Assembly: GCA_035289085.1 (NCBI GenBank)
Contig: DATDYG010000019.1
Coordinates: 1-35,335, forward strand
Origin: Candidatus Bilamarchaeaceae archaeon
GTDB taxonomy: Archaea > Micrarchaeota > Micrarchaeia > Anstonellales > Bilamarchaeaceae
Length of the DNA stretch: 35,335 nucleotides
Direction of reading: 5' to 3'
The translations under genes were made by a program, and so were the position numbers. Positions within the stretch are counted from its first letter, which is position 1, and each line of letters starts with the position of its first letter. Below, piece by piece: positions 9,032 through 35,335 of the stretch. The notes beneath the pieces are model-generated. The model had not been told where the DNA came from. It was given only the letters and a program-made list of their open reading frames with translations, and did not search any database.

Positions 9032-9117
9032 TGCTGAGGAGAGACGAACCCTATGCCTTTATTTTTCTTATGTACCACATATGAATCGCCTAAAGCATAT
9101 AAGCATTAGCGAGGGCT

Positions 9118-9732
9118 TTAGCCCTGGGAGTGTGTCACCATTTTTAGCAGCTCAAGATTTTTCATGCCATTCTTGAAGTGCCGTTCGTCAATCTTAATCG
9201 TTGTTTTCTTTGAAAGGTGATACGCAAATATGCTTACAAACCAGCCCAAATATCTTCTAAGCGAATAGCGGTATAACTCATTAAATTTAACAAGATCAGT
9301 ATTTGTTAGATAATGCTCCCAAAGATCCAAAATATCATGCAATGAAATTGGCAAAATGCCTTTTTCTGAGTAATAAAGAAGATCAACAAGGCATTTCTCA
9401 AGTTTTGGACGAGATTCTTCTACTTCTCTTCTAGTTTTGCCTTTCCTTGCCACAATAACTATGCTGGCCTTTTTATCCACTAATCTTATTCTGAGTATTG
9501 GTTTTTTTATCCCTGCATAAATTTCATGATCTGGATAATTTTTAACCATCAATTCAACCAATGAATCTATTGCAACTCGATCGCACTCAATGAAAATTAT
9601 GTTCTTTCTCCAATTATGAAGCATAGGCATAAAAGGGGTTAAATCCCAGATAACAATACTTAACGCTGGCATCTCCCTATGAATCACTTTTGTTATTTTT
9701 CCAGTCTCTTTTCCGAATATAATACTTGTCAT
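9118..9732 (-). CDS. hypothetical protein, candidate cognate partner (antitoxin position) of the 8084-9031 nucleotidyltransferase
   Basis: 204-aa ORF immediately upstream on the same strand, which is the canonical antitoxin-first order. I saw no obvious N-terminal winged-HTH and recognised no family. Confidence 0.45.
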   Translation of the reverse strand: MTSIIFGKETGKITKVIHREMPALSIVIWDLTPFMPMLHNWRKNIIFIECDRVAIDSLVELMVKNYPDHEIYAGIKKPILRIRLVDKKASIVIVARKGKTRREVEESRPKLEKCLVDLLYYSEKGILPISLHDILDLWEHYLTNTDLVKFNELYRYSLRRYLGWFVSIFAYHLSKKTTIKIDERHFKNGMKNLELLKMVTHSQG

Positions 9733-9740
9733 ATAATTAG

Positions 9741-9777
9741 TTTATATGACAAGATATAAAAAGCTATCTTTTGTCAT
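9741..9777. promoter_or_regulatory. palindromic TATA/operator region in the divergent TA promoter
   Basis: TTTATAT(9741-9747)/ATATAAA(9754-9760) is a perfect 7-bp inverted repeat. ATGACAAGATA(9746-9756)/TATCTTTTGTCAT(9765-9777) is an imperfect palindrome. The ATATAAA arm lies 22-28 nt upstream of the minus-strand start at 9732. Confidence 0.5.
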
Positions 9778-9808
9778 CTATGATTTACTAAATTAGCAAA
9801 TCGATAAG

Positions 9809-9819
9809 ATTAAAAATAG
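9809..9819 (+). promoter_or_regulatory. TATA box for the 9839-10513 nucleotidyltransferase gene
   Basis: ATTAAAAATAG lies 20-30 nt upstream of the ATG at 9839. Confidence 0.5.
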
Positions 9820-9838
9820 TTTAATCTTTATTAGTTGT

Positions 9839-10513
9839 ATGGCTATATTTGAAAAATGGGATTGGATAAAAAGAAACTGGCTCTACGTGCTGGAGGAAGC
9901 TGATAAATTAGGCCTTGTTTTCGCAGGTGGCACAGCACTTAACCTAGCTATATTTAGGGAATATCGGGCATCCGAAGATATCGATTTATATAATCCTGAT
10001 TCTAAGGGCGTTGATAATCCAAAAGGTATTGCAGAAAGTGAACTGGCAGCCGAATTAGCAGAGCAGCTTGCAAAAAAAGGATTTGAGATAGTGAAAATCG
10101 AGGGAAGGGTGATCTATACAGGGCCCAATATAAAAATTGAAATTTTTAATGATGGCACGTTATTCAATAAAATAGAAAAAAAGACGATAAAAGAAGTAAA
10201 AATAGCGGTTTTTGATTTGCCTACTTATGCAGAAATGAAAATGTCAGCCCTTCTTTGCAGGACGAATTATGATTCACGCGATCTTATAGATGTTTTTATC
10301 CTCCATACTGGGGGCAAGGTCAAACTTTCTTTCCCAAGAATGGAATGCGAAATTATCGAAAATCAGTTTCACCAGCGCCTTAAAGAAATAAAAGAAACCA
10401 AAAAAGGCGATCTTTACATTTTCCAGACAAAGGAGCAGGTTGATTCTCTTCCATTCAACGAATTTGAAAAATTTAAGTGGTGGTTATCTGACTGGCTATC
10501 AGGATTTCATTAG
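9839..10513 (+). CDS. AbiEii-like nucleotidyltransferase (second copy)
   Basis: VFAGGTALNLAIFREYRASEDIDLY is the GGTAL...R.S.DIDL core motif. A later SRDLIDVF block is also typical of the family. Confidence 0.7.
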   Translation: MAIFEKWDWIKRNWLYVLEEADKLGLVFAGGTALNLAIFREYRASEDIDLYNPDSKGVDNPKGIAESELAAELAEQLAKKGFEIVKIEGRVIYTGPNIKIEIFNDGTLFNKIEKKTIKEVKIAVFDLPTYAEMKMSALLCRTNYDSRDLIDVFILHTGGKVKLSFPRMECEIIENQFHQRLKEIKETKKGDLYIFQTKEQVDSLPFNEFEKFKWWLSDWLSGFH

Positions 10514-10514
10514 G

Positions 10515-11078
10515 ATGTTCAGCGGTGGGGCATTTGTCTCCTCAAAGGAGATTGCACGGAGCTTCAATTTTCCAAAGGCCCTGAGCTCACTGTATATCAT
10601 ACCGACATTCTTCAAGGGCATCTATTATGTCCCATCAGAAAAAGAACGAAAAGGCCATTTCATAGACAAACCAGCACAATTCTTTTCCAATCTTTTCGAT
10701 TTTGCATATGGAAGAAAGAAATGGTACTGGTCGCTAAGTACTGCTGCAAGGCACTATGGTTCGGAGTGGAGTTCTACAAAAATCCTGGAAATAGTGGCTG
10801 TAGGGGAATCAAAAAAACTGGATATTATTTCTAGAGCCGAATCCCTTGGAAGGAAAAGGTCATATCGTTCCAGGACGCTGTCGAAAATCCTGTTATCACT
10901 CGGCATAAACCTTGTCTTCATACATAAGGGAAAAAGGATTTTCTTGAAAGAAATAAAAATCGATTCCGAACTTGGACCTGTGGCAACAAAAGAAAGGCTA
11001 AAAAAGGATGCTGTTTTTTTCCTTCCTCGAAACAAAGATAAATCACTCAGGAGATTGTACAAGAAATACCTGCAATGA
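10515..11078 (+). CDS. AbiEi-like putative antitoxin/transcriptional regulator (start chosen at the ATG just after the upstream stop)
   Basis: The track ORF runs 10440-11078, and the in-frame ATG at 10515 follows the upstream TAG directly (TAGGATG). FFKGIYYVPSEKE and YWSLSTAARHYGSEWSSTKILEIV resemble the RG.Y and S.L..hG blocks of AbiEi-family antitoxins. The gene order here is toxin-first. Confidence 0.5.
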   Translation: MFSGGAFVSSKEIARSFNFPKALSSLYIIPTFFKGIYYVPSEKERKGHFIDKPAQFFSNLFDFAYGRKKWYWSLSTAARHYGSEWSSTKILEIVAVGESKKLDIISRAESLGRKRSYRSRTLSKILLSLGINLVFIHKGKRIFLKEIKIDSELGPVATKERLKKDAVFFLPRNKDKSLRRLYKKYLQ

Positions 11079-11199
11079 AAAATGGTGGAATATCACAAAT
11101 AGTTATTTTTCATGTAAACAAATGGCTTTATAAAACTTTCCATCCATAAATATAATATCTGGGTTAGATATATTATATTAAAAAATGAGAGGTGTGTCT

Positions 11200-11979
11200 A
11201 TGGGTGCTGCAGCAGTTCAACCTGTTCAAAAAGAAAGAGTCAGAGGTCCTTATTTACGTGTATTGGTGCCTAGATCCCAAGGTGTTCCTTTTGAAAGAGC
11301 ATTAGTCTTGGCAGAAGGGGCAAATGGAGTTATTGCTTCCAATAAAAGATTAGATAAAGCTTTAGTTGGTAGTGATGAGTGGCAACGTGTCAAAGAGGTA
11401 TTTGCTGCTTGGTCTGGCACAATGACTGCTTATAAAGAACCAGGTCAAAAATTAGGTAAACAAATTGAATACGTAGATTCTGAAACTGATTTTAGGTGGG
11501 TATTTTCTGTTCCAGAAGCCCATAAGGATAAGAAAAGTGCTATTCTAGTAGCTGAACATCCTGATTATACTTTAGAAGTAGACGGAAGAAACAGAGTTGT
11601 TCATGCTGCAAAAGTTGATTTAGTTGGAGAATTTCCAGCTTCTGATGGTTGGTATTTAACAGATAGAGTTCACGGAATACCGACTGGTGAGCAGGTCCCT
11701 TCTTCAAACGGTGATGCAAGATATTTATGGAGAATAGCCAGTAGAGTGGGCCCTGTTGCTCGTGGCTTCTACGGCAGGCGGTACGTGGGCCTCGTTTACA
11801 GGCCGTCCGACGGTTACGGGGTGGCAGTCGAGGCCAGCGAAGCTGGCGCGCCGCTTGAAACGGGTGCTCCTATACAACTAAAAATGACTAGAGAAGGCGA
11901 TGGCAAACTAATCGTTGAAGGAACTAAAGAGCAGTTAGATGCAGCAACAAGATTAGTTGAAGGACTAAAGCAAAAATAA
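11200..11979 (+). CDS. hypothetical protein with mosaic base composition
   Basis: The track ORF starts at 11185, but AGAGGTG (11188-11194) sits 5 nt before the in-frame ATG at 11200, so I prefer that start. No family was recognised. Confidence 0.55.
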   Translation: MGAAAVQPVQKERVRGPYLRVLVPRSQGVPFERALVLAEGANGVIASNKRLDKALVGSDEWQRVKEVFAAWSGTMTAYKEPGQKLGKQIEYVDSETDFRWVFSVPEAHKDKKSAILVAEHPDYTLEVDGRNRVVHAAKVDLVGEFPASDGWYLTDRVHGIPTGEQVPSSNGDARYLWRIASRVGPVARGFYGRRYVGLVYRPSDGYGVAVEASEAGAPLETGAPIQLKMTREGDGKLIVEGTKEQLDAATRLVEGLKQK

Positions 11980-13852: not shown

Positions 13853-14671
13853 TTATTGCGCAGCAACCGCTTCTGCTGTCGTATCCGTCTGCGGCTCCGT
13901 TTTTTGTTCGATGATCTTCCTTAATCTCAGGAGCGCTTCGGTCTTGAGCTGGCATGCCCTGGATACTGTTACCCCCAGCATTTCGCCGATTCTTTGCAAC
14001 TCTACTTCTTCAAAATGATATAAAATAATAATCATCCTATGTCTCGGGCCAAGCTGGTTGATCGCATCTCTTAATGTTAACATGTCCTCCCTGCTGATCA
14101 CATGACCTAGGGCATCCACCTGATTTGCAACTGTTCCTCTGGTTAAGAAGGCAAGGTCCTCCTCTGCTAATGCATCCAGAGGGCGGCTTCGTGCTCTCCG
14201 TGCCAAGACCAGCACTTCCCGTAATTTTTCTATACCCATCTGCGCTCTTTCTGCCAGTTCCTCATCCGAAGGCTCGCGGCACAGCTCCTTCCTGAGTCTC
14301 TCATCTATTCTCTGTACCCTCTTTAATTGGATTCTTTTATCCCTGGAGAGTGGATCCACCATTCTCAGTTCATCCAGCATTGCCCACTTCACTCTTTTTT
14401 CGGTGAATTGGCGCGGGGTGCCTTGTTCCGGATCATGATCCTGGCGCATTCTTTGTACGAATGCCATCCTTCCGGCCTGGGCCAGATCCCTATAATCCAC
14501 CGCATACCTTGTTCTGGCAGCGAGGCGGCGGGCCATTGACTGTATCCATCCGTCATTTTCTCTTAATAATACGTCCATTCTGTCCACAAGGGGCTTTATG
14601 CTGGCCAGTTTTGCCTGTAATCCTGCTCCATGCGCGGGCAGCATGTCCGCCTTTAATGCCACTATCGCCAT
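13853..14671 (-). CDS. sigma-70 family protein, FliA/sigma-28-like (paralog 1)
   Basis: Region 2-like DLAQAGRMAFVQRMRQDHDPEQG..FTEKRVKWAMLDELRMVDPLSRDKR. Region 3-like PSDEELAERAQMGIEKLREVL. Region 4 HTH LGPRHRMIIILYHFEEVELQRIGEMLGVTVSRACQLKTEALLRLRKI. Confidence 0.8.
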   Translation of the reverse strand: MAIVALKADMLPAHGAGLQAKLASIKPLVDRMDVLLRENDGWIQSMARRLAARTRYAVDYRDLAQAGRMAFVQRMRQDHDPEQGTPRQFTEKRVKWAMLDELRMVDPLSRDKRIQLKRVQRIDERLRKELCREPSDEELAERAQMGIEKLREVLVLARRARSRPLDALAEEDLAFLTRGTVANQVDALGHVISREDMLTLRDAINQLGPRHRMIIILYHFEEVELQRIGEMLGVTVSRACQLKTEALLRLRKIIEQKTEPQTDTTAEAVAAQ

Positions 14672-14726: not shown

Positions 14727-16469
14727 CTATTGCGCAGCCGTTGCACTGTCTGCTATCGCCGCAACTTTCTTCGCATCCGCAGCATTTCCTGCTTCCAGTT
14801 CTTTGTGCAGCCGGTTTCCCAGGCGCGCAAAACCAGCCAGATACAAGTTGATAAGGCTGCCCCTTGGTATTCCCCCTCTTTCCTCGATTAATATACCGTT
14901 TGCGATCAGATCTGCCAGTTCGCCTTCTCTCAACTGCAGGGCATGTTCTGTGTCTTCCCTATCTGCTATCCACCCGTCCAGGGGCGGCAGGTTCGCCATG
15001 CTTGTCGCTCCCAAAAAGGAAATGCGTCTTTTGTTATCCATTAAAACCGGAAAATCCGTTTCCCTGTCCAGCCGGCCTGTATACTGTCCCAGACTTCTTC
15101 TTCCTATTCCTCTGCTGTCATAAATCTCATTATATATTCTTCCGGCATCCAATTTTTCCCGCATCATCACTGCCAGATGCTCCAGAACCAGATCCCTGTC
15201 CTGCTCTGCATAACCTGAAACAATCCTATCCATCCACCGCTGTGCAAACCGATCCAAAAACCCATCCCAAGGATCCTGCTCTGCTACTTGGGTCCTTTCC
15301 CCTACTGGTTCTGCCAGCTCCATCCCCTCCTCTTCGGTCGGCGCCGTCCGTCGCTCATCCCTGCCTGCTTCAGGTGCAGCAACTTCGTACTGCTCTCCAA
15401 GTACTGCCTCCAATACCTCCTGTTCCGCTGCATCTTCCGATCCTACTTCCCTTTCCAGTTCTACAAGCCTCTTCAGCTCCTCTCCCAGTCCCTCAAGTCC
15501 GTCCAGAAACCCATCCAAGTCCGTTCCATCTTCCTCGTTTCTCCCTGTCAATCCCTGCTGTTCCATCGGTGCTGGCGGTCCTTCTTTCTCCTCTACCACA
15601 GCATCTGCTTCCAATTCTGCGGAAGCTGCCTGTAATCGTCCATTGCTTCCCCTGGCTATGTTCTTTGCCGGTACCTTGTCGGATTTTAACATCTCTTTTA
15701 ACTGTTCTCTGGCTTCCCCGAGAAGCTGGCATATCCTGGATTCCGTGACCCCCAATTCTTCGCCTATTTGTCCTTGCGTGCGTTCTTCAAAATAGTAACC
15801 CTCTATTACCCGCCGATGCCTTGGGGAGAGCTCTTGCATAAACACATGTATCTGCATCTCATCCATTCTTCCTACCAAGAGGGTCAGTGAATCCAGCTGC
15901 TCGGCCGGTACATTCGCCAGCAAATCCAATTGATCGGAAGGTGCTCCTGTTCTGTTACGGGGGGTGAAGTAGGCGACTAAGGCGGCCTTCTGCATTATTC
16001 GGACCCTACGTGCCTTCTCCACTGACCAGTCCATTCCTTCAGCCAGTTCCTCGTCCGTGGCATCCCGGCCATGGGATTGGGAGTATCCCCGGTCCACCTT
16101 CCTTGCTCCCCTAACATCCCTTCTCATGTTCCGGCTAAGAGGATCCATATCTCTCAGTTCATCTATTATCGCCCCCCGGACTCTCTCCGCTGCGTATGCC
16201 TCAAAGGCACCTATTTGTTCCGGATCACAGTGGTGGTAAGCCCGGATCAGTCCCTCCATTCCTGCCTGTTCCAGATCCTCCTTCACTCGCACAGCACGCG
16301 GAACTTTTCTGGCATATTGTTCGGCCATCTTTCTTACACGGGGCCCTAATCTTTCCACTACGCTATCCAGTCCTCCCAATCCCTTGATGACCCTGAATTG
16401 CCTTGTTCTTCCGGCCATTTTAGGTTTATTCTGCAACTGCTTAAAGGTCATACCATCTACCATCTGCAA
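14727..16469 (-). CDS. sigma-70 family protein, FliA-like, with a C-terminal extension of about 320 aa (paralog 2)
   Basis: DLEQAGMEGLIRAYHHCDPEQIGAFEAYAAERVRGAIIDELRDMDPLSRNMRRDVR and LSPRHRRVIEGYYFEERTQGQIGEELGVTESRICQLLGEAREQLK are present. The track start at 16469 is a TTG. In-frame ATGs at 16463 and 16451 fit the upstream TATA better, so the start is uncertain by 2-6 codons. Confidence 0.75.
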   Translation of the reverse strand: MQMVDGMTFKQLQNKPKMAGRTRQFRVIKGLGGLDSVVERLGPRVRKMAEQYARKVPRAVRVKEDLEQAGMEGLIRAYHHCDPEQIGAFEAYAAERVRGAIIDELRDMDPLSRNMRRDVRGARKVDRGYSQSHGRDATDEELAEGMDWSVEKARRVRIMQKAALVAYFTPRNRTGAPSDQLDLLANVPAEQLDSLTLLVGRMDEMQIHVFMQELSPRHRRVIEGYYFEERTQGQIGEELGVTESRICQLLGEAREQLKEMLKSDKVPAKNIARGSNGRLQAASAELEADAVVEEKEGPPAPMEQQGLTGRNEEDGTDLDGFLDGLEGLGEELKRLVELEREVGSEDAAEQEVLEAVLGEQYEVAAPEAGRDERRTAPTEEEGMELAEPVGERTQVAEQDPWDGFLDRFAQRWMDRIVSGYAEQDRDLVLEHLAVMMREKLDAGRIYNEIYDSRGIGRRSLGQYTGRLDRETDFPVLMDNKRRISFLGATSMANLPPLDGWIADREDTEHALQLREGELADLIANGILIEERGGIPRGSLINLYLAGFARLGNRLHKELEAGNAADAKKVAAIADSATAAQ

Positions 16470-16503: not shown

Positions 16504-17154
16504 CTATTCTGTTTTTCCGCCTGGCACTGCCACCAGCCAGGGCCTGCCATTGCCATAGCCGCAGGCGGGTGCCTCCATTGCCGCTTTCAATTCCCCGAGC
16601 GCTTCTTTGATAAGCTTGGATACCATAGGTTGGCGGATGCCCAGTATTTCGGCTATTTCCTTTTGGTCTACGCCGTCAAAAAAGTATAATTTTATTGCCA
16701 GCTGTTTCCTCCTGCCCAGCCGGTGAATTCCTCCCATGAGCCTTCCTATCTGCTGGCTGCGTGCCGTTGCTTCAAAGGGATCCGCATCACGGGACACGGG
16801 TTCGCTGTCCGAGCGCAGGGGAGCAGGAATATCACGGTACCGCAAGTCTCTCAAGTAATCCATCATCCGGCACCGCACTTTCCATCTCGCAAATGCTTCA
16901 AACGTGCCTCTTTCCGGGTCATATCTATGTCCTTCCGCAAGCAGCGCCATTCTTCCTGCCTGCACCAGATCATCCGCATCGGCTCCATGTTCCCAGGCCA
17001 TCCTGCGGGCCATGGTGCGGATCAATGAGTCGTGCTCTCTCAACATGGTTGCATCAGTATGCAGTCCTTCTGCCATCCCGTCCCTGAATCCTCTTCGGGA
17101 TGCAGGGACAGCGCCGGGTTTTGAGGCGTTCTGTAATCGGGTAACTAGTGCCAT
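16504..17154 (-). CDS. sigma-70 family protein, FliA/ECF-sized (paralog 3)
   Basis: DLVQAGRMALLAEGHRYDPERGTFEAFARWKVRCRMMDYLRDL is region 2-like. LGRRKQLAIKLYFFDGVDQKEIAEILGIRQPMVSKLIKEALGELK is a region 4 HTH. Confidence 0.75.
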   Translation of the reverse strand: MALVTRLQNASKPGAVPASRRGFRDGMAEGLHTDATMLREHDSLIRTMARRMAWEHGADADDLVQAGRMALLAEGHRYDPERGTFEAFARWKVRCRMMDYLRDLRYRDIPAPLRSDSEPVSRDADPFEATARSQQIGRLMGGIHRLGRRKQLAIKLYFFDGVDQKEIAEILGIRQPMVSKLIKEALGELKAAMEAPACGYGNGRPWLVAVPGGKTE

Positions 17155-18289: not shown

Positions 18290-19276
18290 TTATCTCCCTG
18301 CTACCGGGTTTATCTCTAGTTGGGATTCCTGCTCTGCGGTATGGTGAATGGTTTCCCCGGCATAATATATCTTGTAACCGCTCTTGGCGGTATGCAGCGT
18401 TCTTTCTCCCATCTCCACTGCCGTTACTCCCCTGGCTACGATAACCTCTGCGCGGGTGATGGCCACCGCTCCTTCGGCGGTTTCTTTGGTTAGCATCTCC
18501 GCTATTTTGGGCAAGGCCTTAACCGCTCCTTTCGCCGCCAGTTGCAATGCCTTGGCAGCGGTTATCGTAATCGCCACCTCAATGGCCGCGTTTTTCACAA
18601 ACTCTCCGGAAACCGATAAAAATCCGCTAAGCTGTTCCAGTTCCGCATGGTTCTGCCGGAGCAGGGAAGAGAGGTTTCCGTGTGCATCCCCCAATCCCTC
18701 CATCGCATACGCCAGCCTGTCCTGCGCGGTTTGAAGTTGTTGGCGGTCCCCGGAAAACAACGCGCGGGTCATCTGATTATAGGATTCATAGAAGCTTTCC
18801 AGTTTCATGTCAAAACGCCTGGCTTCCTGGGCGGCCTGGGCCCATACCCTGGTTTGCTTGCCGCTTAAATATTTCCCTGCTTCTCCCAATACCTCTTTCG
18901 TATCCTTTAATGTCACTATCTCTTTCCCACTGGTCCATTCATACAATTGTACAAACGGATGGCCCACAGCCGAGAGCGCTCCTGCTGCCCCGGATCCCAA
19001 TCCAGCGGCAACCTCCTTTGCCCGGCTGGGTTTGTTTGCTGCGAGTTCGGCCTGCATCTGCTGCAGCGCATCGCCACTTGAACTGGCATGTTCGGCTATT
19101 TTTAGCAGCTGCTGTATGGCAGGCCGGTACTGCTGGTACGTGTCCAATGCGGCTTGCTGCTGCTCGGTCAATGGCCGTTGCTCCATCCAGGCGGCGGCCC
19201 GCTGCTCCACATCCCGCAGCTGCTGCACGTTTTGCTGGAATGCCTCCTGCTCCTTGGTCATTTGTTTGAATGCCAT
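18290..19276 (-). CDS. hypothetical Gln/Ala-rich helical protein
   Basis: 328-aa ORF. AGGTGA SD overlaps the upstream stop 4-9 nt before its ATG, and its stop abuts the DUF59 start, which suggests translational coupling. No family was recognised. Confidence 0.55.
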   Translation of the reverse strand: MAFKQMTKEQEAFQQNVQQLRDVEQRAAAWMEQRPLTEQQQAALDTYQQYRPAIQQLLKIAEHASSSGDALQQMQAELAANKPSRAKEVAAGLGSGAAGALSAVGHPFVQLYEWTSGKEIVTLKDTKEVLGEAGKYLSGKQTRVWAQAAQEARRFDMKLESFYESYNQMTRALFSGDRQQLQTAQDRLAYAMEGLGDAHGNLSSLLRQNHAELEQLSGFLSVSGEFVKNAAIEVAITITAAKALQLAAKGAVKALPKIAEMLTKETAEGAVAITRAEVIVARGVTAVEMGERTLHTAKSGYKIYYAGETIHHTAEQESQLEINPVAGR

Positions 19277-19280
19277 ACAT

Positions 19281-20036
19281 TCACCTGCGGCTGGGCACGC
19301 TGTCCCGCACGGAATTCTCCCTGTGCAATTCCAATATCCGCTTCAGTGCCGGATCGTCTGCAACGGCGGCCTGCCACTCCGAGGCTACGCGGGGGTTTAT
19401 GCGTACGGCCCATTGAATAAACAGTCCTTTTTCCGGCAGTGCCACTTCCCCATCTTCTACTTCTGCATGCAACCGTTCCACTGCCTTGGCCGGGTCAATC
19501 AGTTTGTTGTGAAACATCATATACGTTGCAGTCGTTGCAATGCCATGCAGCAGCAAATACTCCTCTGATGAAAACGGCATCCGCATCCCTGCTCCGGCCC
19601 GAACCAGCTGCACCGCTGTTTCAAATCCCTGCTCCCCAAACCGCGCCAGCCCGTATGCCAGCGTTTTCATGTATCGAAACCGCCGGAGATTGGTTTTTCG
19701 GAGCTGGCTGAAATCCTCCGGACTCCTACCCGCCAACAAAACCTGTTTCCGGATCTCTTCGAGCGCTTTTCCTTTGTATCTATCTACAAAGCTCTGCATA
19801 ATGTCAAACCGTGTCTGCTCGCTTAAATCTTCGGCCAGGATGGCAAAAACGATGCTGCGCGCCTTTTCAAACGGCAATTTCTCCATGGCTTCGGCTGCCC
19901 GTTGCTTGGCATTGGATTGAGTTGCAACTATCGCCATATCATCTCCTCCTTTGCATGCAATGTGTTCTACTGCCGGAACCGTTGCCAATACCAGCGATAT
20001 TGCCGTTCTCCGGATTATCTGAAATCGTTGTACCAT
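19281..20036 (-). CDS. hypothetical protein, possible signal or lipoprotein-like N-terminus
   Basis: 251-aa ORF, the first gene of a same-strand run. Its N-terminus reads RRTAISLVLATVPAVEHIAC. No family was recognised. Confidence 0.55.
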   Translation of the reverse strand: MVQRFQIIRRTAISLVLATVPAVEHIACKGGDDMAIVATQSNAKQRAAEAMEKLPFEKARSIVFAILAEDLSEQTRFDIMQSFVDRYKGKALEEIRKQVLLAGRSPEDFSQLRKTNLRRFRYMKTLAYGLARFGEQGFETAVQLVRAGAGMRMPFSSEEYLLLHGIATTATYMMFHNKLIDPAKAVERLHAEVEDGEVALPEKGLFIQWAVRINPRVASEWQAAVADDPALKRILELHRENSVRDSVPSRR

Positions 20037-28312: not shown

Positions 28313-28501
28313 TTTTGACTTTAACCAGTCCTTATTTATCGAAGAATAAACCGATTTCAGCAGTTTTGCCTGCTTTTTCGACCAAACCCTATTGGGCTGG
28401 CTTTTTATGATACCGGCTATCCGGTCTATAAACCGTAACGAGGCCCGTATATCCTTTTTTCGTTCCCGTTTCATTTTTCCCAGGTCAAGCAAATGAACCA
28501 C
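28307..28501 (-). CDS. small basic hypothetical protein (64 aa), possible partner of the upstream nucleotidyltransferase-fold gene
   Basis: The ORF overlaps the 3' end of 28485-29108 by 17 nt, and an alternative Met at 28474 avoids that overlap. It overlaps the convergent trm56 stop by 6 nt. No family was recognised. Confidence 0.3.
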   Translation of the reverse strand: MVHLLDLGKMKRERKKDIRASLRFIDRIAGIIKSQPNRVWSKKQAKLLKSVYSSINKDWLKSKS

Positions 28502-29108
28502 CGAGGTTATGCAATTTACTGGAAACTTTTAATTTCTTTGCAAAATGAACAATCTTCCTTTGGTCCAAATGCTCCTTAAATATGTCAAAAAGATATCGTG
28601 CATCCTCCCAATCCTTTTTGGATCCCAGGTACAGTTTATACGCTACCTGAAGTTCCAAAGGAGAAATGTTTATTTTGTGCTTTTTATTGATCGTTACCTC
28701 CACGGGATGGCTAAGCGATAAGAACCCAAGCGCATCTCTGGGTTTTTTTACCTCCATGTTGGGCGAAATCTCATTTTTTCTGGCCACGCGGAACGGATCA
28801 TTATGCTGAAAAAGAAGTTTAAGCGTATCCCAGGATCCCGCGTTAATAATCCAATGATCCTTCTGCAGTTCTTTGTATAATGCAAACAGTTTTTTTTCGT
28901 CTATTTCCTCTATAAAAATATCCACATCCTCTGTAATCCTGGGACGACCGAAAAGCAGGACAACATATCCGGACATTAAAACATATCTTATTCCTACTTT
29001 ACCCAGGATGGCGGTAAAACCCAGGACAAACTCATCCAGTACGTTCAGTTCCTTGTCCAGGCGAATCTTCCCTTCCCCATACCCGTATTCCATGCCCCTA
29101 TTAAGCAA
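28485..29108 (-). CDS. nucleotidyltransferase-fold protein (minimal NTase-like)
   Basis: YVLMSGYVVLLFGRPRITEDVDIFI fits the G[SG]-x(n)-[DE]xD polymerase-beta-type NTase core. The gene is AT-rich like the AbiE island. Confidence 0.6.
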   Translation of the reverse strand: MLNRGMEYGYGEGKIRLDKELNVLDEFVLGFTAILGKVGIRYVLMSGYVVLLFGRPRITEDVDIFIEEIDEKKLFALYKELQKDHWIINAGSWDTLKLLFQHNDPFRVARKNEISPNMEVKKPRDALGFLSLSHPVEVTINKKHKINISPLELQVAYKLYLGSKKDWEDARYLFDIFKEHLDQRKIVHFAKKLKVSSKLHNLGGSFA

Positions 29109-29138: not shown

Positions 29139-30191
29139 TCAGTCTTTTTTTGCATCTTTTCTTGAAAAATCCCCAAAAATTTCCAGTCCTGGGGCGGTTC
29201 CTATGCTTGGCAGTGCCTCCAGCGGCATGTCGATAAATAGTTCCCCATCCCCGAATCCATACTCCTCCTCAAAGGCCCTCCGGGCTTCCAGCGCTGCCGT
29301 GAATTCCCCGAATGTTTCCAGTCCTTCCACCGGGCTTACGGAAGGCAGCGGCCGTCTTCTTTGCCGCATAAGCTGCTCTATCTCTGCCGTTATCTGTTTC
29401 GCCAGTCCCTGTCTTTCCTCTCCGCTTAATTCACGGCTCGTTATGCTTAGCCTCCCATCTGCCATCAGCTTAACCGGACTGTAGTAATCCCGAAGACTGG
29501 TAGCTCTGCGATACCTGTCCGGTGCTACAATGGCTAAAAAATTCCTGCCATTAAGGAAATCGGATAACGTCCCCTCATTGTACATCCTAAGGAATTCCTC
29601 TGCCGTATGCACCTCTCCATCAAATTGGAAGGCCCTATTCGTGGTGACGTGCAGGTGGGGGGTTTTCCCTGCCTGTGTATTCCCGCTGATCGCAACGATC
29701 GGTAGGGGCTTACCGGGTTCTGCCCTTATCTCCCTTCCGATGTGCCTTTCGTTCAGCAAGCCCAATGTTGCCCCGGAAAGATGGGCAAAGAGCATGAAAT
29801 ACGGCTTTTCCGGATCCGGCACAAAAAACACCACCCCATTGCCGATGCTTTGGCCGGCATGGCTGTCCTTTTTGCAAACCCCTATCAGAACGACCGTTGG
29901 GGCCGGCAGAAGAACCGGTGTGCCTATGCGCACCACCAGGTCCACACCTGCATGCCGTTTGCTTCCGTGGTTTCTCGATGCGCCGAAATACCGCGTTCCT
30001 GTTCTTTCGATAACCTGGCGAATGGCATGTTTAAACGGATCGGTTCTATGTCTTTCGGGTGCAGAGAAAGTTGGATGAGCGGGTTCCGCATGCACCGGCC
30101 CTTCGCCAAGTACCAGTCCGGATAGTGCAACCGCTGCTGCGCGAACGGTGCCCATGGCTGGCGTGAATGCTCGTGTATGTAGTCTTCGCAT
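29139..30191 (-). CDS. secreted M23 (LytM/lysostaphin-type) metallopeptidase with a C-terminal extension carrying two GLE[TI]FG[ED]F motifs
   Basis: Signal-peptide-like MGTVRAAAVALSGLVLGEGPVHA. M23 zinc ligand motifs are HAGVD (HxxxD, residues 80-84), FAHLSG and TPHLHV (HxH, residues 179-181). The motif copies lie at 29301-29324 and 29166-29189. Confidence 0.75.
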   Translation of the reverse strand: MRRLHTRAFTPAMGTVRAAAVALSGLVLGEGPVHAEPAHPTFSAPERHRTDPFKHAIRQVIERTGTRYFGASRNHGSKRHAGVDLVVRIGTPVLLPAPTVVLIGVCKKDSHAGQSIGNGVVFFVPDPEKPYFMLFAHLSGATLGLLNERHIGREIRAEPGKPLPIVAISGNTQAGKTPHLHVTTNRAFQFDGEVHTAEEFLRMYNEGTLSDFLNGRNFLAIVAPDRYRRATSLRDYYSPVKLMADGRLSITSRELSGEERQGLAKQITAEIEQLMRQRRRPLPSVSPVEGLETFGEFTAALEARRAFEEEYGFGDGELFIDMPLEALPSIGTAPGLEIFGDFSRKDAKKD

Positions 30192-30210
30192 TATCTATCC
30201 CACATATCAC

Positions 30211-30220
30211 TATAAATAAA
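30211..30220 (-). promoter_or_regulatory. TATA box for the M23 peptidase gene
   Basis: The minus-strand sequence TTTATTTATA lies 20-29 nt upstream of the start at 30191. A second TTTAAATAAG lies just upstream at about 30224-30233. Confidence 0.55.
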
Positions 30221-30271
30221 AACTTATTTAAAGATGCGGTATTCTATACCCCTGCTCAAACCCGCCAAAAA

Positions 30272-32449
30272 TTATGCTCCTGCTTCCCCCGTCTTTCGGG
30301 GTTTGATCCCGGCCAGCCGGTCCTTTCTTTTAACCGGAACAGCGGATTCCGGGCCCCATTCGGTATAGGGCTTTGCCTTGCGCGGGTTTCTTAAGGTTCC
30401 TTCGGTGATTTTAAGGTCGTGGTCAGCAAGGTATTCGGCATTTTGCAGGACAGTATCAATCGGCGTACGTGTTCCCTCACCTATTCTGAGGCGAAGGATA
30501 GGGATAGCTACGCCGGGACTATACAAAGCATTCATAATTTCCTTGGCCACTTCTCCTAACCTATATCCTGCAGCGGATTCCGCAACTATCGTCATTGTCC
30601 TGACAAACTTGGCCAGGTCTTCGTCTGTTCGAAGTATCCCCCGATCAAAACCATCCCTGAAAAGGCTTGCCAAAACCTCTTCGGGCTGCTGCAATCCTCC
30701 CTGGGCTGTTGCCGCTATCAACCTAAACACCAACGCCTGGCGGACTGGGCTGTTTCTATAATCGCTTCTATGCTTGACCTTATGTTCAGCAGCCCCGTAA
30801 AGCGGTCTTTCAATATCAAAAACCTCGCCTGATGTTACCCGCCCAAAAAGGTTTATCCCTGGTCCACGTTGCAACTTATCTCCTAACGCTCCTATGGCTG
30901 CCGCATACTCAAGCATAGAATAAGAATCATGTAACAGTCCCGAGCTTATAGCCTTGGAAAGCATCCTTTCCACCAATATGAATTCACCCGGATCTAAATT
31001 GTCAGAGAGCCAACTAACGAAACCGATAGCAAGCGTGTTAAATACTTCCACCCCTGCTCTGGATGCACCTGCAATTACCGGGGTGATAAGGAAATCATCC
31101 ACAGCCTTTCTCTCCGGCGATTTAGTCCGTCCTGCCAAGTATCCGTATGCAACCGCTTCCTGGTTCAAGATTCTTGCGCTGAGGGCACCTTCCTGTGCCT
31201 TACTTGTAGTTTCTGCAAAACTTTTCAATACCCTTTTCGTTAACTCGACCGCAAAGTCCGGGCTGCGGGGCGGCTTAAGCTGGAACGCCTCCAGAAAAGA
31301 GTAATGGAAGGTGGATAAGATAAGAATCTTCTCCAAGTATGTTGTTTCTATCCCCATATTTTGCAGGTTTCGTAGATTCCTGTCTACTTTTTCTACCAAT
31401 CTCTCTCCACCTGGAACTGAAAGCCTTTCTGCCTCTGTTGATGGCCTCTGCCATATATCCTTTAACGCCTGCAGCATTTCCACGTAAATCTTGCTTTGCA
31501 TCTTTTTTGATTTTGCTGCAGCATAAAAGGCATCTATAAACGCCTGCGGGTACTGTTCCTCTATCTGACGTAATTTATCCAGAACGGTTAACAAAAGCAG
31601 GCGTTCCCGCTCTGTCAACAGGTTGTTCTTCGGATCCAGCAGCTCCTTTAGCTTTTCTTCCGTGCTTTTGGACAGGCGCATATCCCTGCCTTTCAAAACA
31701 CTGGGAATGAGTTCTGCTGTAGTCGTCATATAGGCCGCTCTTTCCGCCGGCGTCGTGTCCAGCCATTTGGCCTTTAAGTATAATACCGCATCCTCCAGCT
31801 TTCCTGTTTTACTATGGGTAGCCAGGATCTCTGCAAAAATGGCCTTCAGCAGCTTGGTATCCGGCTCGGGCCTTGCCACCCCTCCAACCTCGTCCTTTGA
31901 TGCGGCTTTTATAAGCTCTGCAAATGCCGTTCGCGCATCCGGCGAGGCATCGCGTCCGTCCAGGGCTTTCTTTACCTCTTCCAGCTGCCTGTTCATCTCG
32001 GCTGGCGTTCCGCCGGCCTGGACGATCTTCTGGTATTCTATTATCGTCTTCATGAATTTTACTACTGCCTCTTCACCATGCTCTGTCATCAGCATGAAGG
32101 TGCCAAACAGGAACAGGTCCTTCTGCTTCGGGGTTAGTGTTATCAAAAAACTCCTGAGTGCTGCACTGGCTTCCTCCGAAGCCCCGCTGTGCTTTAAAAC
32201 GTCAAAAATAATGTCCTCCACCGGCTTCCTTAAATCGACAATACTGTGCCGCACAAGTACAACATACATCCTGTCCAGTTCCTTCATTATCTTCGGCCAG
32301 GACAAATCGCCTTTGGCGATGGTCGGTTCCATGGCATCTTCTATTTGTGTAGGGGTAGCGTGTGTTGGCATACTACTATAATTCGGAGCAGTATTTATTA
32401 ATCTTTGCGGTTGCTTTGCATGGGATAAAGAGGATATGAGTGGTGCCAT
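30272..32449 (-). CDS. large orphan protein (725 aa), mostly helical, basic C-terminal tail; N-terminus uncertain
   Basis: Long ORF with coding-strand composition matching its neighbours. No strong SD or TATA precedes the ATG at 32449. The 81 nt upstream are open in frame and encode a signal-peptide-like RSRHPSALLALTLG. The C-terminus RNPRKAKP..VKRKDRLAGIKPRK is basic. Confidence 0.6.
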   Translation of the reverse strand: MAPLISSLSHAKQPQRLINTAPNYSSMPTHATPTQIEDAMEPTIAKGDLSWPKIMKELDRMYVVLVRHSIVDLRKPVEDIIFDVLKHSGASEEASAALRSFLITLTPKQKDLFLFGTFMLMTEHGEEAVVKFMKTIIEYQKIVQAGGTPAEMNRQLEEVKKALDGRDASPDARTAFAELIKAASKDEVGGVARPEPDTKLLKAIFAEILATHSKTGKLEDAVLYLKAKWLDTTPAERAAYMTTTAELIPSVLKGRDMRLSKSTEEKLKELLDPKNNLLTERERLLLLTVLDKLRQIEEQYPQAFIDAFYAAAKSKKMQSKIYVEMLQALKDIWQRPSTEAERLSVPGGERLVEKVDRNLRNLQNMGIETTYLEKILILSTFHYSFLEAFQLKPPRSPDFAVELTKRVLKSFAETTSKAQEGALSARILNQEAVAYGYLAGRTKSPERKAVDDFLITPVIAGASRAGVEVFNTLAIGFVSWLSDNLDPGEFILVERMLSKAISSGLLHDSYSMLEYAAAIGALGDKLQRGPGINLFGRVTSGEVFDIERPLYGAAEHKVKHRSDYRNSPVRQALVFRLIAATAQGGLQQPEEVLASLFRDGFDRGILRTDEDLAKFVRTMTIVAESAAGYRLGEVAKEIMNALYSPGVAIPILRLRIGEGTRTPIDTVLQNAEYLADHDLKITEGTLRNPRKAKPYTEWGPESAVPVKRKDRLAGIKPRKTGEAGA

Positions 32450-32530
32450 TCCTAACGTCAGAGCCAGCAGTGCGGATGGATGTCTGGACCTGCTGTCCTT
32501 GGGTTTACCGGTAACTATTTTTCCCCATCT

Positions 32531-32677
32531 TTAAATATTTGCCACAAGACTGCTTTTCGACCTGGACTGGATGAACTCCCCGAACGTCTCGAGCCCTGCC
32601 GCTTTGATTTTCGCCAAAAAAGGATTCTTTCTCTTTTTCGATACGGTTTTTGCCTTCTTCTTGGATGGTTTTGCCAT
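32531..32677 (-). CDS. unannotated small ORF (48 aa): basic N-terminus plus GLETFGEF motif
   Basis: My translation is MAKPSKKKAKTVSKKRKNPFLAKIKAAGLETFGEFIQSRSKSSLVANI. AGGTGAGG SD lies 3 nt upstream of the ATG and overlaps the upstream TGA. The ORF carries the same 8-aa motif as two neighbouring proteins and is too short for the supplied ORF track. Confidence 0.5.
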   Translation of the reverse strand: MAKPSKKKAKTVSKKRKNPFLAKIKAAGLETFGEFIQSRSKSSLVANI

Positions 32678-32682
32678 GGACC

Positions 32683-33834
32683 TCACCTTTTTTTCCTTTT
32701 CGCCGGTTTCTCTTCCCCCCCTTCTCTCCTTCTTCTTGAAAATTCACCCAGCGTTTCTACGCCCGGAACGGTTGGCGGAAGCTCGACTCTGGGCAGTTCG
32801 GCTTCTCCCGCTTCCCCTGCCGCTGCCGCCTCTGCCGGCTTCCCTGCATCCTCCAGATCCCTCAAAAACCCTGCTTTCTTCTCGTTTTCCCAGCTGCCTC
32901 TCTGTATGATGTTGTAGATCGCCAGCACGGTCGCCATCTTCTCATCCAATACGCCGTCCATGGTAAAGCCGGTCACGGTCCTGAATCCTTCCCTTTCTTC
33001 CATCACCGGCTTTCCCTCCTCGAGCCTGATCATGCCGGTTTCCTGCAACGCATTCAGAAAGGCGCGCGCCTTGTCGGAGTCCTTCTGCGCATAGTAACTC
33101 AGGAATACCTCCAACTGCGTTACCATATGGTTGAAACTGTCGTCGTATCTGCCGTTCGGTCGTACGCCCATCCCTCCGCCGGCTGTTTTCACAAACTGCT
33201 TGAACTCTTCATCTCCCTGCAACAACTTCAGGTAGAGCCGTTGGACCGTTTCCACCCGTCCCTGCTCCAGTTTCCTCCGTGCATTTTGCTGGGTATATTC
33301 TCCCCCGATATCCTGCCGCTGGCCTTCGGGGCCCACCAGACCCATGGTGATCAGCGCTTCCGCCGGTTTGGGCCCGCCCTGGAAAAACAAATGCGCCATC
33401 TGTTCCGGATTCTCCATCCGTGCGCCCGGCACGTACAGCCGTTCCAGCCGTGCAGTGAGCGTTTTCCGTTGTTTTGCCAGTTCCCTCCATACAGCAACCG
33501 CACCTCTTTGATCAAACCTTGCTTTTAACCGATCATCAAAAATCGCATTAAACTGCGTCGTTAATCGCGGCCCCAGCGCCTCCTTCATCCCATCCCTGAA
33601 CTTTTCATCGCGCAGGTTGTCCACTGTAAATAACCGTATAAATGACCTTCGGTCTCCTCTTCCGGTTTCAATGAATCTCCGCAGTTCTTCGCCTGCCTTC
33701 CTGCCTTCCTCTTCCAGCGATTGTGCTTGGGCCTGTGCTGCCATCATCATATGTTCCCCGAATGGTTTTTTAAAGCTAAATGCGCTCACCGCAACTACGC
33801 CGCTTAGCGCTAAGCGCAAAACCCTTCTCCCCAT
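32683..33834 (-). CDS. secreted orphan protein (383 aa) ending in GVETLGEF plus an Arg/Lys tail
   Basis: Signal-peptide-like MGRRVLRLALSGVVAVSAFSF. The C-terminus reads PGVETLGEFSRRRREGGEEKPAKRKKR, with the motif at 32740-32763. A TATA-like AATTTATTC/TTTAAAG lies in the 38-nt upstream gap. Confidence 0.6.
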   Translation of the reverse strand: MGRRVLRLALSGVVAVSAFSFKKPFGEHMMMAAQAQAQSLEEEGRKAGEELRRFIETGRGDRRSFIRLFTVDNLRDEKFRDGMKEALGPRLTTQFNAIFDDRLKARFDQRGAVAVWRELAKQRKTLTARLERLYVPGARMENPEQMAHLFFQGGPKPAEALITMGLVGPEGQRQDIGGEYTQQNARRKLEQGRVETVQRLYLKLLQGDEEFKQFVKTAGGGMGVRPNGRYDDSFNHMVTQLEVFLSYYAQKDSDKARAFLNALQETGMIRLEEGKPVMEEREGFRTVTGFTMDGVLDEKMATVLAIYNIIQRGSWENEKKAGFLRDLEDAGKPAEAAAAGEAGEAELPRVELPPTVPGVETLGEFSRRRREGGEEKPAKRKKR

Positions 33835-33872: not shown

Positions 33873-35324
33873 TCAAAGATTCGGTATCCGTCCTCTCCTG
33901 CGCCCTCTTCCATGTCTCGTTCGCCGTGGTTTGGCTTCTGCTGGTTTCTTCTCCCGTGTTTTTTCTGCTGCTTCTTCTGTTATCACTTCCTCCACCTTCT
34001 TGGGCGCTTTCAACAGCCCTCGTCCTGCGTAAATTGCCTGCAGGGAATCCGACAGCATCAATCCGTCCAATCGCTGATCTTCTTTCGCAAGCTGGTCAAG
34101 CAGTTGCATCTCCTTTCCTTCGGCTACGTTTTCCTTGAACCAGTCCTGCGCCATCCTGCCTGCAGCCTGATAGATGGAATGGATGAGCCAGGGGATTGTT
34201 TTCCCGGTAATCACCGGTGAAGGCGGCCGTGCCCTTCCCAGCGTTGCTTCCCGGAGTTCCTGCAGACTTTTAAATCTGAATCGCAGGCGCGGAACCGTCT
34301 CTGGCCCTATCTCCGTGGCGAGATGCTGCGTGCCGTAGCCGACCGTTCGCTTTAAGTAATAGAAGAATACCGGCGACAGGAGCAGCTGCATGTCCGGGTT
34401 GGCCCGGGCCATCGCATACGGAATACGGAAAGGTAGCTTGGCTCCCCACCGTCCTAATCGTACTACATCCGCCCCCAATCCTATTGCCGTTTCAAAAACC
34501 AGTGCGGTTTGTGCAAGCTCCGCACTTATCTGCGCGTGGCGCATAGCGGTCTGCTGGCCTTCTGCCGTTGTAATATCTGCTTTGGCCAGCTGCTGGGTAA
34601 GTCCTCTTTGCTCTTTCCATAACTCAATGAATCGTGCGACGGGTCGTGTTCCGTATAACCGCTCCAGCAGTCCGCGCGTCTTCTGGGCCTGTGCCATGGC
34701 TTTGGGGCCCAAACGGCCTGCCGCGCCAGCGGCCATCTGCGCCAGCCATCCGGCTTTTTGAACTACCCATGGGCCGGCTGCCCCATGCTCGGCTGCGGCC
34801 GCCCTGCTCATTGCCGTCTGGATGGCATCCCGGTCTGCCTGCAAAAAGGCGATCCTGGCTTCTACTTCTGCGGAGGGTTTGCCTGCATCCTGCAATCCCT
34901 TTAACTCTTTTTGCGCATCCCCTAGCCCCTCCAATACCGTCTTCATATTTGCTTCCAATGCTTCCCTTCCGGTTGCCTTGGCGCCCTCTTTCTCCGCGGC
35001 TTCGGCCGCTTCCTGCGCAAGGCGCTGTAAATGTTTTGGCGACATCTCGGCCATTACCTGCAGCTGGTATGCCTCCAGCACCTGCAATCGCGTTGCATCG
35101 TCCATTTTCGGGATATCATCGGTGAGCTGCTGCAGCATTTTTCTAAAGCGTTGCGGGGTGCTAAGGTATTTCCATATCTCTTCCGCGGCCGCCAGCTGTG
35201 CCCGGCGTAACCGGCTGCCTTCCCGGGCGTCGGTTGCCAACCGGTTTTTTATCTGTTTCCCGCTTTCCCACAATGCGGTCCGCGCATTTTTCAGCTCTTC
35301 CCCTTTCATTCCCCGCTTGCCCAT
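33873..35324 (-). CDS. orphan helical protein (at least 483 aa) with an Arg-rich C-terminal tail; may extend beyond the window
   Basis: Long ORF with no in-frame stop between the Met at 35324 and the window edge. The C-terminus reads KPRRTRHGRGRRRGRIPNL. No family was recognised. Confidence 0.6.
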   Translation of the reverse strand: MGKRGMKGEELKNARTALWESGKQIKNRLATDAREGSRLRRAQLAAAEEIWKYLSTPQRFRKMLQQLTDDIPKMDDATRLQVLEAYQLQVMAEMSPKHLQRLAQEAAEAAEKEGAKATGREALEANMKTVLEGLGDAQKELKGLQDAGKPSAEVEARIAFLQADRDAIQTAMSRAAAAEHGAAGPWVVQKAGWLAQMAAGAAGRLGPKAMAQAQKTRGLLERLYGTRPVARFIELWKEQRGLTQQLAKADITTAEGQQTAMRHAQISAELAQTALVFETAIGLGADVVRLGRWGAKLPFRIPYAMARANPDMQLLLSPVFFYYLKRTVGYGTQHLATEIGPETVPRLRFRFKSLQELREATLGRARPPSPVITGKTIPWLIHSIYQAAGRMAQDWFKENVAEGKEMQLLDQLAKEDQRLDGLMLSDSLQAIYAGRGLLKAPKKVEEVITEEAAEKTREKKPAEAKPRRTRHGRGRRRGRIPNL

Positions 35325-35335
35325 CTCGATGCTCA

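Follow-up and report, generated by a model that had tools for sequence, protein, structure and literature searches.

Positions 1 to 35,335 of contig DATDYG010000019.1 (GenBank assembly GCA_035289085.1), a stretch of Candidatus Bilamarchaeaceae archaeon DNA that was analysed in its entirety and is referred to here as the window, encode an eight-residue peptide motif, G[LV]E[TI][FL]G[ED]F, that occurs twice in the tail of a protein resembling M23/LytM-type metallopeptidases and once each in the tail of a 383-residue protein and in a 48-residue peptide. The corresponding genes belong to one tightly spaced, minus-strand cluster located between the genes for FtsZ and aTrm56, in which the products are, in order, 778, 383, 48, 725, 350 (the M23-like protein) and 207 residues long. 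The motif is real, is selectively maintained and conserved in relatives, and is modularly distributed; our tentative reading of it is that of a short linear docking tag which brings the proteins of the cluster to a common partner.

All four copies are found on the minus strand at precisely the positions that were given in a preliminary description of the sequence (see the table), and no fifth copy of the pattern is present in any frame of the 35-kb window. The proposal, made in that same description, that the motif is common to members of one gene cluster was likewise upheld, and the tails in which it resides are of low complexity and probably unstructured. When a BLOSUM profile was built from the four copies, their own scores ranged from 33.5 to 38.5, while the next-best 8-mer in the six frames of the window scored 21; the pair of identical GLETFGEF peptides scored 43, as compared to shuffle maxima that averaged 35.3 +/- 1.7 and reached at most 41 in 60 within-protein shuffles of 39 window proteins. 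Two further strings, DGLEGLGEEL in a 580-residue sigma-like protein (15477-15500) and YGLARFGEQ in a 251-residue protein, scored 18 to 20, which is the level of noise, and were set aside.

The manner in which the copies have diverged indicates what is being conserved. The DNA strings that encode the two GLETFGEF peptides, which had been quoted correctly, differ at five of 24 positions, all of them third-codon positions and all synonymous; given that 23% of the possible single changes are synonymous, the probability that all five would be so is approximately 6e-4. Identity at the level of DNA between motif copies is only 67-83%, and the constraint therefore acts upon the minus-strand peptide rather than upon a DNA element or overlapping plus-strand reading frames, as had been argued from the synonymous differences alone. 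A DNA-level repeat, or an open reading frame (ORF) on the opposite strand, was rejected as an explanation because the variation is limited to third positions of the minus-strand frame. The same purely synonymous divergence from the M23 copy argues that the 48-residue ORF is translated; it has been called as a gene in independent assemblies (48 residues if read from an ATG start, the call of JGI and ENA, or 51 from a GTG start at 32686), and a strain variant displays an A9T change that lies outside of the motif. The C-terminal copy of the M23-like protein, GLEIFGDF, is part of a 41-nucleotide region that is 71% identical to the DNA of the copy in the 383-residue protein, and the peptide common to these two is T[AV]PG[LV]E[IT][FL]G[DE]FSR[KR].

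The window sequence was recovered in independent assemblies from several samples at an identity of at least 99.7%, and Rifle groundwater is indicated as their origin by the names of the samples (ANAN16, SRR39893xx); these close strain variants (L001, L087, L088 and L109-L112) are too alike to inform on constraint. A scan of 185,579 species genomes (GTDB) with back-translated GLETFGEF returned 85 single, unrelated matches, many of them in non-coding frames, with no archaeal match and no genome that harbored two copies, and a corresponding scan of IMG/VR returned seven single matches. Neither scan yielded relatives, and as an exact 8-mer the motif is thus not widespread.

Relatives were instead reached through the 725-residue protein, the sole member of the cluster for which they were found when that protein and the 383-residue protein were used as queries (homologues of the M23 catalytic domain were found separately). 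An exhaustive HMMER search with the 725-residue protein against 1.84 billion representatives identified five relatives, and a metagenome scan added two loci, L097 and L098; a word-indexed search with the alignment of the family returned only the query's own cluster, as did a word-indexed search with the 383-residue protein, which has no detectable homologue by that route. The relatives are approximately 26-30% identical to the window protein. In all four loci that encode a long form of the 725 family (L089, L093, L097 and L098), the long-form gene adjoins SecDF, and this syntenic position in four lineages argues for vertical inheritance. The gene directly upstream of it encodes, in each of the four, a protein of 364-492 residues with a signal-peptide-like N-terminus and with a copy of the motif in its tail, located 26-35 residues before the C-terminus. 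The tails read KELPELVEYTPVE-GLPSYKGF-VNEWEKEHSKKKEQPKEEPKKKKKKGKKKKKGE in L097, PPPELVEVGKIE-GLPSYDKY-VEKYISKTKKKQK... in L089, KKEG-ELETFEEF-KKRMVEEEKSKKK...KKKKKKGKKKKKGK in L093 and PEVEGWGAEV-GFKTFDQW-EKEKMAEEKEK...KKKKKEKK in L098, which together with the window copies correspond to a consensus of glycine, a hydrophobic residue, any residue, threonine or serine, an aromatic residue, any two residues and a second aromatic residue. A proline- and glutamate-rich stretch (ELPxLVExxPVE) is often found ahead of the motif, and in the tails of the upstream genes a basic run follows it.

Conservation in orthologs, upon which the preliminary description had staked its claim, is thus borne out by motif copies at the same tail position in four distant loci. 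An alignment (hhalign) of the window's 383-residue protein with the orthologue profile was confined to residues 340-369, and the tail is therefore the best-conserved part of that family. A pattern widened to accommodate the orthologue copies gave exactly one match per related locus and none in unrelated loci totalling 593 kb, or 786,000 open-frame residues, the zero background being the informative part of this result. The string 'ATLGQFS', in a divergent neighbour gene of L095, was considered as an additional copy and rejected as a constrained motif, its counterpart in L099 being 'ALTQFS'.

The distribution of the motif is modular, in that it is found on three unrelated proteins and is absent from homologues of one of them. 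The M23-like protein possesses an HxxxD element (H80, D84) and an HxH element (H179, H181), which are invariant across three M23-like homologues and correspond to the zinc-binding motif of M23/LytM enzymes; its matches to known families are weak but in keeping with M23 (PF01551 with an E value of 0.0028, the 18.2 bits of which fall short of the curated threshold of 28.7 bits; M23 entries of the PDB at 0.016-0.05; and, among PHROGs, a metallo-endopeptidase at 2e-4), and the M23 fold is a putative one. The two homologues that were detected (P0056 and P0057, 45-49% identical) end where the motif-bearing extension begins. Within that extension, LETFGEF is followed by 37 residues with a predicted helix and then by LEIFGDF; the internal GLETFGEF copy is preceded by RRRPLPSVSPVE, and the helix after it would begin at T294 in a low-confidence AlphaFold2 model. 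Since the orthologues carry the motif on the protein encoded upstream of the 725-family gene, and since the M23 homologues are devoid of the extension, the tail of that upstream protein appears to be the ancestral location of the motif.

In its form the motif is a short linear motif in the generic sense: an eight-residue core with four constrained positions, conserved in orthologues and located in low-complexity tails that are modelled with low confidence. Under the docking reading that we tentatively favour, the leucine and aromatic side chains would insert into a groove of one common receptor, and the tag would thereby co-localise the 383-residue protein, the M23-like peptidase and the basic 48-residue peptide. 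Its ancestral home is the tail of a protein of about 370 residues, equipped with a signal peptide and encoded just upstream of the 725-family gene, and in the window lineage it has also been added onto the M23-type peptidase (in two copies) and onto the 48-residue peptide; the cluster has to date been encountered only in the source organism of the window and in a small number of uncultured relatives. The copies within the window are alike (E-T-x-G-[ED]-F), those of L089 and L097 share P-S-Y, and the likeness of copies within the genome exceeds that between orthologues; this would be expected if the copies of one genome all followed a single receptor.

The adjacent 725-residue protein, which is predicted to be helical, is the best though still improbable candidate for that receptor, in which case docking would occur via an N-terminal domain confined to the long forms. 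Two short forms of the family (P0005 and P0006) are without query residues 1 to approximately 260, and their loci are without a motif-bearing neighbour, whereas such a neighbour is present in all of the long-form loci; this provides a weak hint toward the N-terminal helical domain. A third short form, P0007, is a tandem paralogue inside the long-form locus L093 and is uninformative with respect to this co-occurrence. A more elaborate version of the docking reading, and a distinctly unlikely one, is that the tag represents the docking code of a cell-surface apparatus peculiar to these DPANN-type archaea, in which a scaffold of the 725 family would capture tagged secreted proteins; in the window lineage, a peptidoglycan-cutting M23 peptidase and the cationic 48-residue peptide would have been plugged into it once they had gained the tag. 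If true, this would constitute a modular 'dock-and-lyse' device by which the cell attacks a bacterial host or attaches to it.

Several considerations weigh against the docking reading. The widened pattern was written after the orthologue copies had been seen, and the co-occurrence argument is thin, in that it involves only five lineages. The AlphaFold2 models are poor both for the 725 family (predicted local distance difference test, pLDDT, of 53, with the N-terminal helical domain as the best-predicted part) and for the M23-like protein (pLDDT 43). The topology of the system is puzzling, since the 383-residue and M23-like proteins look exported while the 48-, 725- and 778-residue products of the window are without signal peptides, and since orthologues of the 725 family do carry a signal or lipobox that the window protein is without. 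Finally, approximately 40 kb of the genome was covered, and the motif may not be confined to the cluster.

The alternative that survives best, though we consider it rather improbable, is that the motif and its polybasic tail form an envelope- or membrane-targeting segment that holds exported proteins on an anionic surface, either the membrane or wall of the cell itself or the surface of a host, be it bacterial or archaeal; in the M23 peptidase, the module would then stand in for a cell-wall-targeting domain. In five of the eight tail segments that were examined, no other 11-mer is as amphipathic as the motif (with hydrophobic moments, muH, of 0.52-0.63), a strongly basic run follows five of the eight copies (with up to approximately 20 lysines in L089, L093 and L097), and both the 383-residue family and the M23-like protein display signal-peptide-like N-termini. 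DPANN archaea have moreover been reported to possess extracellular, wall-lytic enzymes that are thought to act on their hosts (PMC8204110), which would accord with such a role. However, the mean hydrophobicity of the motif is low, and each of the window copies contains two acidic residues. The assertion of the preliminary description that basic residues follow every copy holds for three of them and fails for the internal M23 copy, where TAALEARRAFEEE follows; the two M23 tail segments carry net charges of -6 and -3, so that the module need not include a basic tail. Polybasic tails are also found on motif-less proteins of 150 and 134 residues in related loci, and may represent a separate trait of the lineage. 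The conservation of glycine 1, threonine or serine 4 and aromatic residues 5 and 8 extends beyond mere amphipathicity, and such position-specific conservation of glycine and threonine or serine is unexpected for a lipid-binding helix. The conservation of specific residues and the net negative charge of the M23 tail segments are both better accommodated by a protein groove than by a lipid surface.

A role in processing or export is unlikely, and can be envisioned in two forms: a cleavage site, cut possibly by the cluster's own M23 peptidase, at which the basic tail would be removed or the enzyme activated; or a C-terminal secretion or sorting signal that proteins of the cluster would read in the cytoplasm. 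M23 enzymes typically cut at glycine. The glycine at position 6 (F-G-[ED]-F) is present only in the window lineage, which is also the sole lineage with an M23 gene in the cluster, and both of these points would suit cleavage; the correlation nevertheless derives from a single lineage, and the motif has been retained in four lineages whose loci contain no M23 gene. The occurrence of the motif on proteins with and without N-terminal signal peptides would be easier to understand if it were read before export, but no gene resembling those for sortases, rhomboids or ABC exporters was detected in the cluster, and the motif is not separated from the basic residues by a transmembrane segment, as it would have to be in a sortase-type signal.

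The preliminary description had further suggested PCNA and the sigma-like proteins encoded in the window as partners of the motif, and this part of it is not sustained: a docking peptide for a sliding clamp, akin to the PCNA-interacting peptide (PIP) box, or for a sigma factor is very improbable. Many PIP-box proteins carry their motif at the C-terminus with basic residues after it. The present motif similarly occupies C-terminal tails, offers hydrophobic and aromatic anchors, is often followed by basic residues and is common to unrelated proteins that would meet at a hub, and the window encodes three sigma-like proteins together with a DNA ligase and an RFC large subunit. It is nonetheless without the initial glutamine, its aromatic residues are spaced at i and i+3 rather than adjacent, and none of the eight copies matches Qxx[LIVM]xx[FY][FY]. 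Its carriers are an M23-like peptidase and orphans with signal-peptide-like N-termini (two of the three are apparently exported) rather than cytoplasmic proteins of DNA transactions; no PCNA gene was found in the window, where 30 ORFs were scanned against Pfam and the remainder by reading their translations, and the resemblance of the sigma-like protein is at the level of noise. Least probable of all is an origin through coincidence, whether of chance or of composition, or through a recent and functionless DNA duplication, for although the motif is short and its pattern was defined post hoc, such an origin is contradicted by the shuffle and background tests, by divergence that is synonymous only, by conservation in four other lineages and by identical copies in independent assemblies from several samples.

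Among known systems, the nearest analogue in form is provided by the FGDF motifs with which alphavirus nsP3, USP10 and HSV ICP8 attach to G3BP at its NTF2-like domain (PMC4450067, PMC4967826). The disordered tail of nsP3 contains two tandem copies, LTFGDFDE and then ITFGDFDD, with a helical spacer between them (LTFGDFDEHEVDALASGITFGDFDD; PMC4967826; PMC4450067), and both phenylalanines and the glycine of the core are essential (PMC4450067). The archaeal motif resembles these in being an aromatic-glycine-acidic-aromatic peptide within a disordered C-terminal region, with tandem copies in the M23 tail, and the viral system illustrates how a tag may cross-link or recruit a partner via a hydrophobic groove. 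The core itself differs: exact FGDF is present in one window copy, FGEF in two and LGEF in the fourth, while the orthologue copies read YKGF, YDKY, FEEF and FDQW, such that the glycine and aspartate are not conserved and the upstream G-L-x-T/S is. The FGDF system is that of eukaryotic viruses and their host, and the resemblance is one of kind rather than of membership. Archaea are not known to have G3BP, and no match to an NTF2-like domain (the NTF2 and SnoaL families of Pfam) was found among the cluster proteins and the other window ORFs that were scanned.

Archaeosortase signals (PGF-CTERM and PEF-CTERM) are likewise archaeal, C-terminal and found on exported carriers, with a proline- and glycine-containing signature and a basic end. 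In those signals, however, a transmembrane helix of approximately 20 residues separates the signature from the basic cluster, whereas here the basic residues begin one to two residues after the 8-mer, with no hydrophobic stretch in GVETLGEF-SRRRR or GLEIFGDF-SRKDAKKD; one copy is furthermore internal, another resides on a 48-residue peptide that is without a signal peptide, and no archaeosortase gene was found in the window and locus (about 40 kb of the genome). Encapsulin cargo-loading peptides are comparable as short, glycine-containing C-terminal tags that are attached by flexible linkers to unrelated cargo proteins encoded beside their receptor. They differ in that no gene for a shell with the HK97 fold is present, the neighbouring proteins being without a match in Pfam, NCBIfam or PHROG, in that the candidate receptor is predicted to be all-alpha, and in that the motif is unrelated in sequence to the published consensus. 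PIP boxes, archaeosortase signals and encapsulin signals thus each fail at least one of the defining features that were tested. The membrane-targeting sequences of MinD and FtsA also consist of a C-terminal amphipathic segment beside basic residues, but the present motif contains conserved acidic residues, glycine and threonine, and its carriers are apparently exported rather than being cytoplasmic division proteins. No description of this tail motif was found, in a literature search that was not aimed at it, and its kind, that of short docking or address tags, is a familiar one.

DPANN archaea encode many lineage-specific proteins to which no function has been assigned to date, some of which are suspected to act in a symbiotic lifestyle. 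In this cluster of orphans, which may be concerned with host interaction, the tag is the best-conserved feature and has been grafted onto a peptidase of a wall-cutting type, and it therefore offers a concrete experimental handle: tail peptides such as AELPRVELPPTVPGVETLGEFSRRRR and PLPSVSPVEGLETFGEFTAALEARR could be used as bait for the receptor, and the motif could be used to list the tagged proteins of these genomes, so that a set of orphan genes becomes a testable interaction network. None of this overturns what is known, nor should it surprise a specialist.

The remaining features of the cluster are collected in the table. Searches with the 383-, 725- and 778-residue proteins produced no match in Pfam, NCBIfam, PHROGs, PADLOC or the PDB, and the 48-residue protein had none in Pfam, PHROGs or PADLOC; given these empty searches, an origin of the cluster as a provirus or defence system is without support. 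The 778-, 48- and 207-residue genes and the M23 gene have no counterparts in the related loci. The 778-residue protein has a predicted all-alpha structure and ends in a polybasic C-terminus, and it carries neither the motif nor a signal peptide. In one strain variant (L109 3995-6382) the called product is 795 residues long, as compared to 778 in L088 (1143-3479), and its gene overlaps the start of the next; the extra C-terminal residues result from a different stop and reflect either a strain polymorphism or an assembly difference.

Features of the motif-bearing gene cluster and of related loci (window coordinates unless a locus is named; residue counts refer to encoded products)
Feature	Coordinates	Strand	Remarks
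First cluster gene	33873..35335	-	Cut by the window end; full length 778 residues (L088 1143-3479)
383-residue protein gene	32683..33834	-	Signal-peptide-like N-terminus
Motif copy GVETLGEF	32740-32763	-	18 residues before the end of the 383-residue ORF; then SRRRREGGEEKPAKRKKR and stop
48-residue ORF, MAKPSKKKAKTVSKKRKNPFLAKIKAAGLETFGEFIQSRSKSSLVANI	32531..32677	-	Net charge approximately +11; without signal peptide
Motif copy GLETFGEF in the small ORF	32573-32596	-	
725-residue protein gene	30272..32449	-	699 residues as called; predicted all-alpha; without signal peptide
M23/LytM-type metallopeptidase gene (predicted)	29139..30191	-	350 residues (338 from the second Met); signal-peptide-like N-terminus
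C-terminal extension of M23-like protein	29142..29429	-	Approximately residues 255-350 (about 95); carries both motif copies
Motif copy GLETFGEF, internal to M23-like tail	29301-29324	-	53 residues from the ORF end
Motif copy GLEIFGDF	29166-29189	-	8 residues before the C-terminus of the 350-residue M23-like ORF; then SRKDAKKD and stop
Last same-strand gene	28485..29108	-	207 residues (202 as called); 30 nucleotides downstream of the M23 gene; cluster membership uncertain
Flanking orphan protein of related loci	L089 8315-8845 and 12873-13277; L093 6645-7100; L097 5976-6455; L098 2767-3216		

The flanking orphan of the related loci is a conserved protein of 134-176 residues (...NAINMINANAAVxALLITRPFNLxPHYLPPP...) with a poly-lysine tail, and it has no counterpart in the window. 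Orthologues of the 725 family begin with a basic stretch, after which comes a hydrophobic segment of the signal or lipobox type, such as LLVVSCGSS (L093 8379-10571, L097 7683-9776 and L089 10001-12007). Both elements are absent from the 725-residue ORF of the window (30272-32449), and the basic 48-residue ORF (32531-32677) occupies the place of that N-terminal region, an arrangement that may reflect a split gene or a lost signal peptide. At its other end the family displays a C-terminal string of its own, I[TD]xGTL[RK][NK]PxKAKP (window 30272-30400; P0003, P0004 and L097 7683-9776), and three members, namely P0003, the L097 protein and, less strictly, that of the window, terminate in ...PKK[AS]GxxYA; these strings could represent a second tail signal in the same cluster. 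A further string, EYG[YF]G[ED]G, is shared between the spacer that separates the two M23 motif copies (29205-29246, EEEYGFGDGELFID) and the N-terminus of the downstream ORF (29061-29096, MEYGYGEGKIRL); the pair scores 36, roughly what the best pair reaches by chance in shuffled proteins, and may mean nothing.

Elsewhere the window, which is archaeal in its gene content, encodes, according to Pfam matches, a proteasome alpha subunit, aTrm56 and a DUF2070 protein and, according to precomputed Pfam domains, an NMD3-domain protein (at the same locus in L087), the RFC large subunit and an XPD-type helicase; the ATP-dependent DNA ligase was identified by reading its translation, and FtsZ and an AglB-like gene lie just past the right window end. 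Three tandem sigma-70 genes of the FliA/WhiG type are located on the minus strand (13853-14671, 14727-16469 and 16504-17154; NCBIfam E values of 1e-25 to 5e-42), the middle one of which possesses a 300-residue, acidic C-terminal extension. Such genes, puzzling in the absence of a bacterial RNA polymerase, have been reported in DPANN archaea, especially Woesearchaeota (PMC8204110), and they make a DPANN-type archaeon the likely source of the window.

Two adjacent, paralogous minus-strand ORFs of 168 and 170 residues (3123-3629 and 3666-4178) encode lipoprotein-like signal peptides and share the blocks ILENGRSVVIV and VTDKxIW, with no family match for either; similar orphan ORFs, rich in alanine and arginine and higher in guanine-cytosine (GC) content, are found among housekeeping genes at 6531-7082, 11185-11979 and 18290-20036. 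An island of low GC content (8084-11078, 0.35-0.39 as compared to approximately 0.50 elsewhere) contains genes for an AbiEii-type nucleotidyltransferase toxin (9839-10513) and a DUF6577 protein (9118-9732), together with an ORF (8084-9031) that is nucleotidyltransferase-like as judged by eye only, and is probably a mobile toxin-antitoxin insertion.

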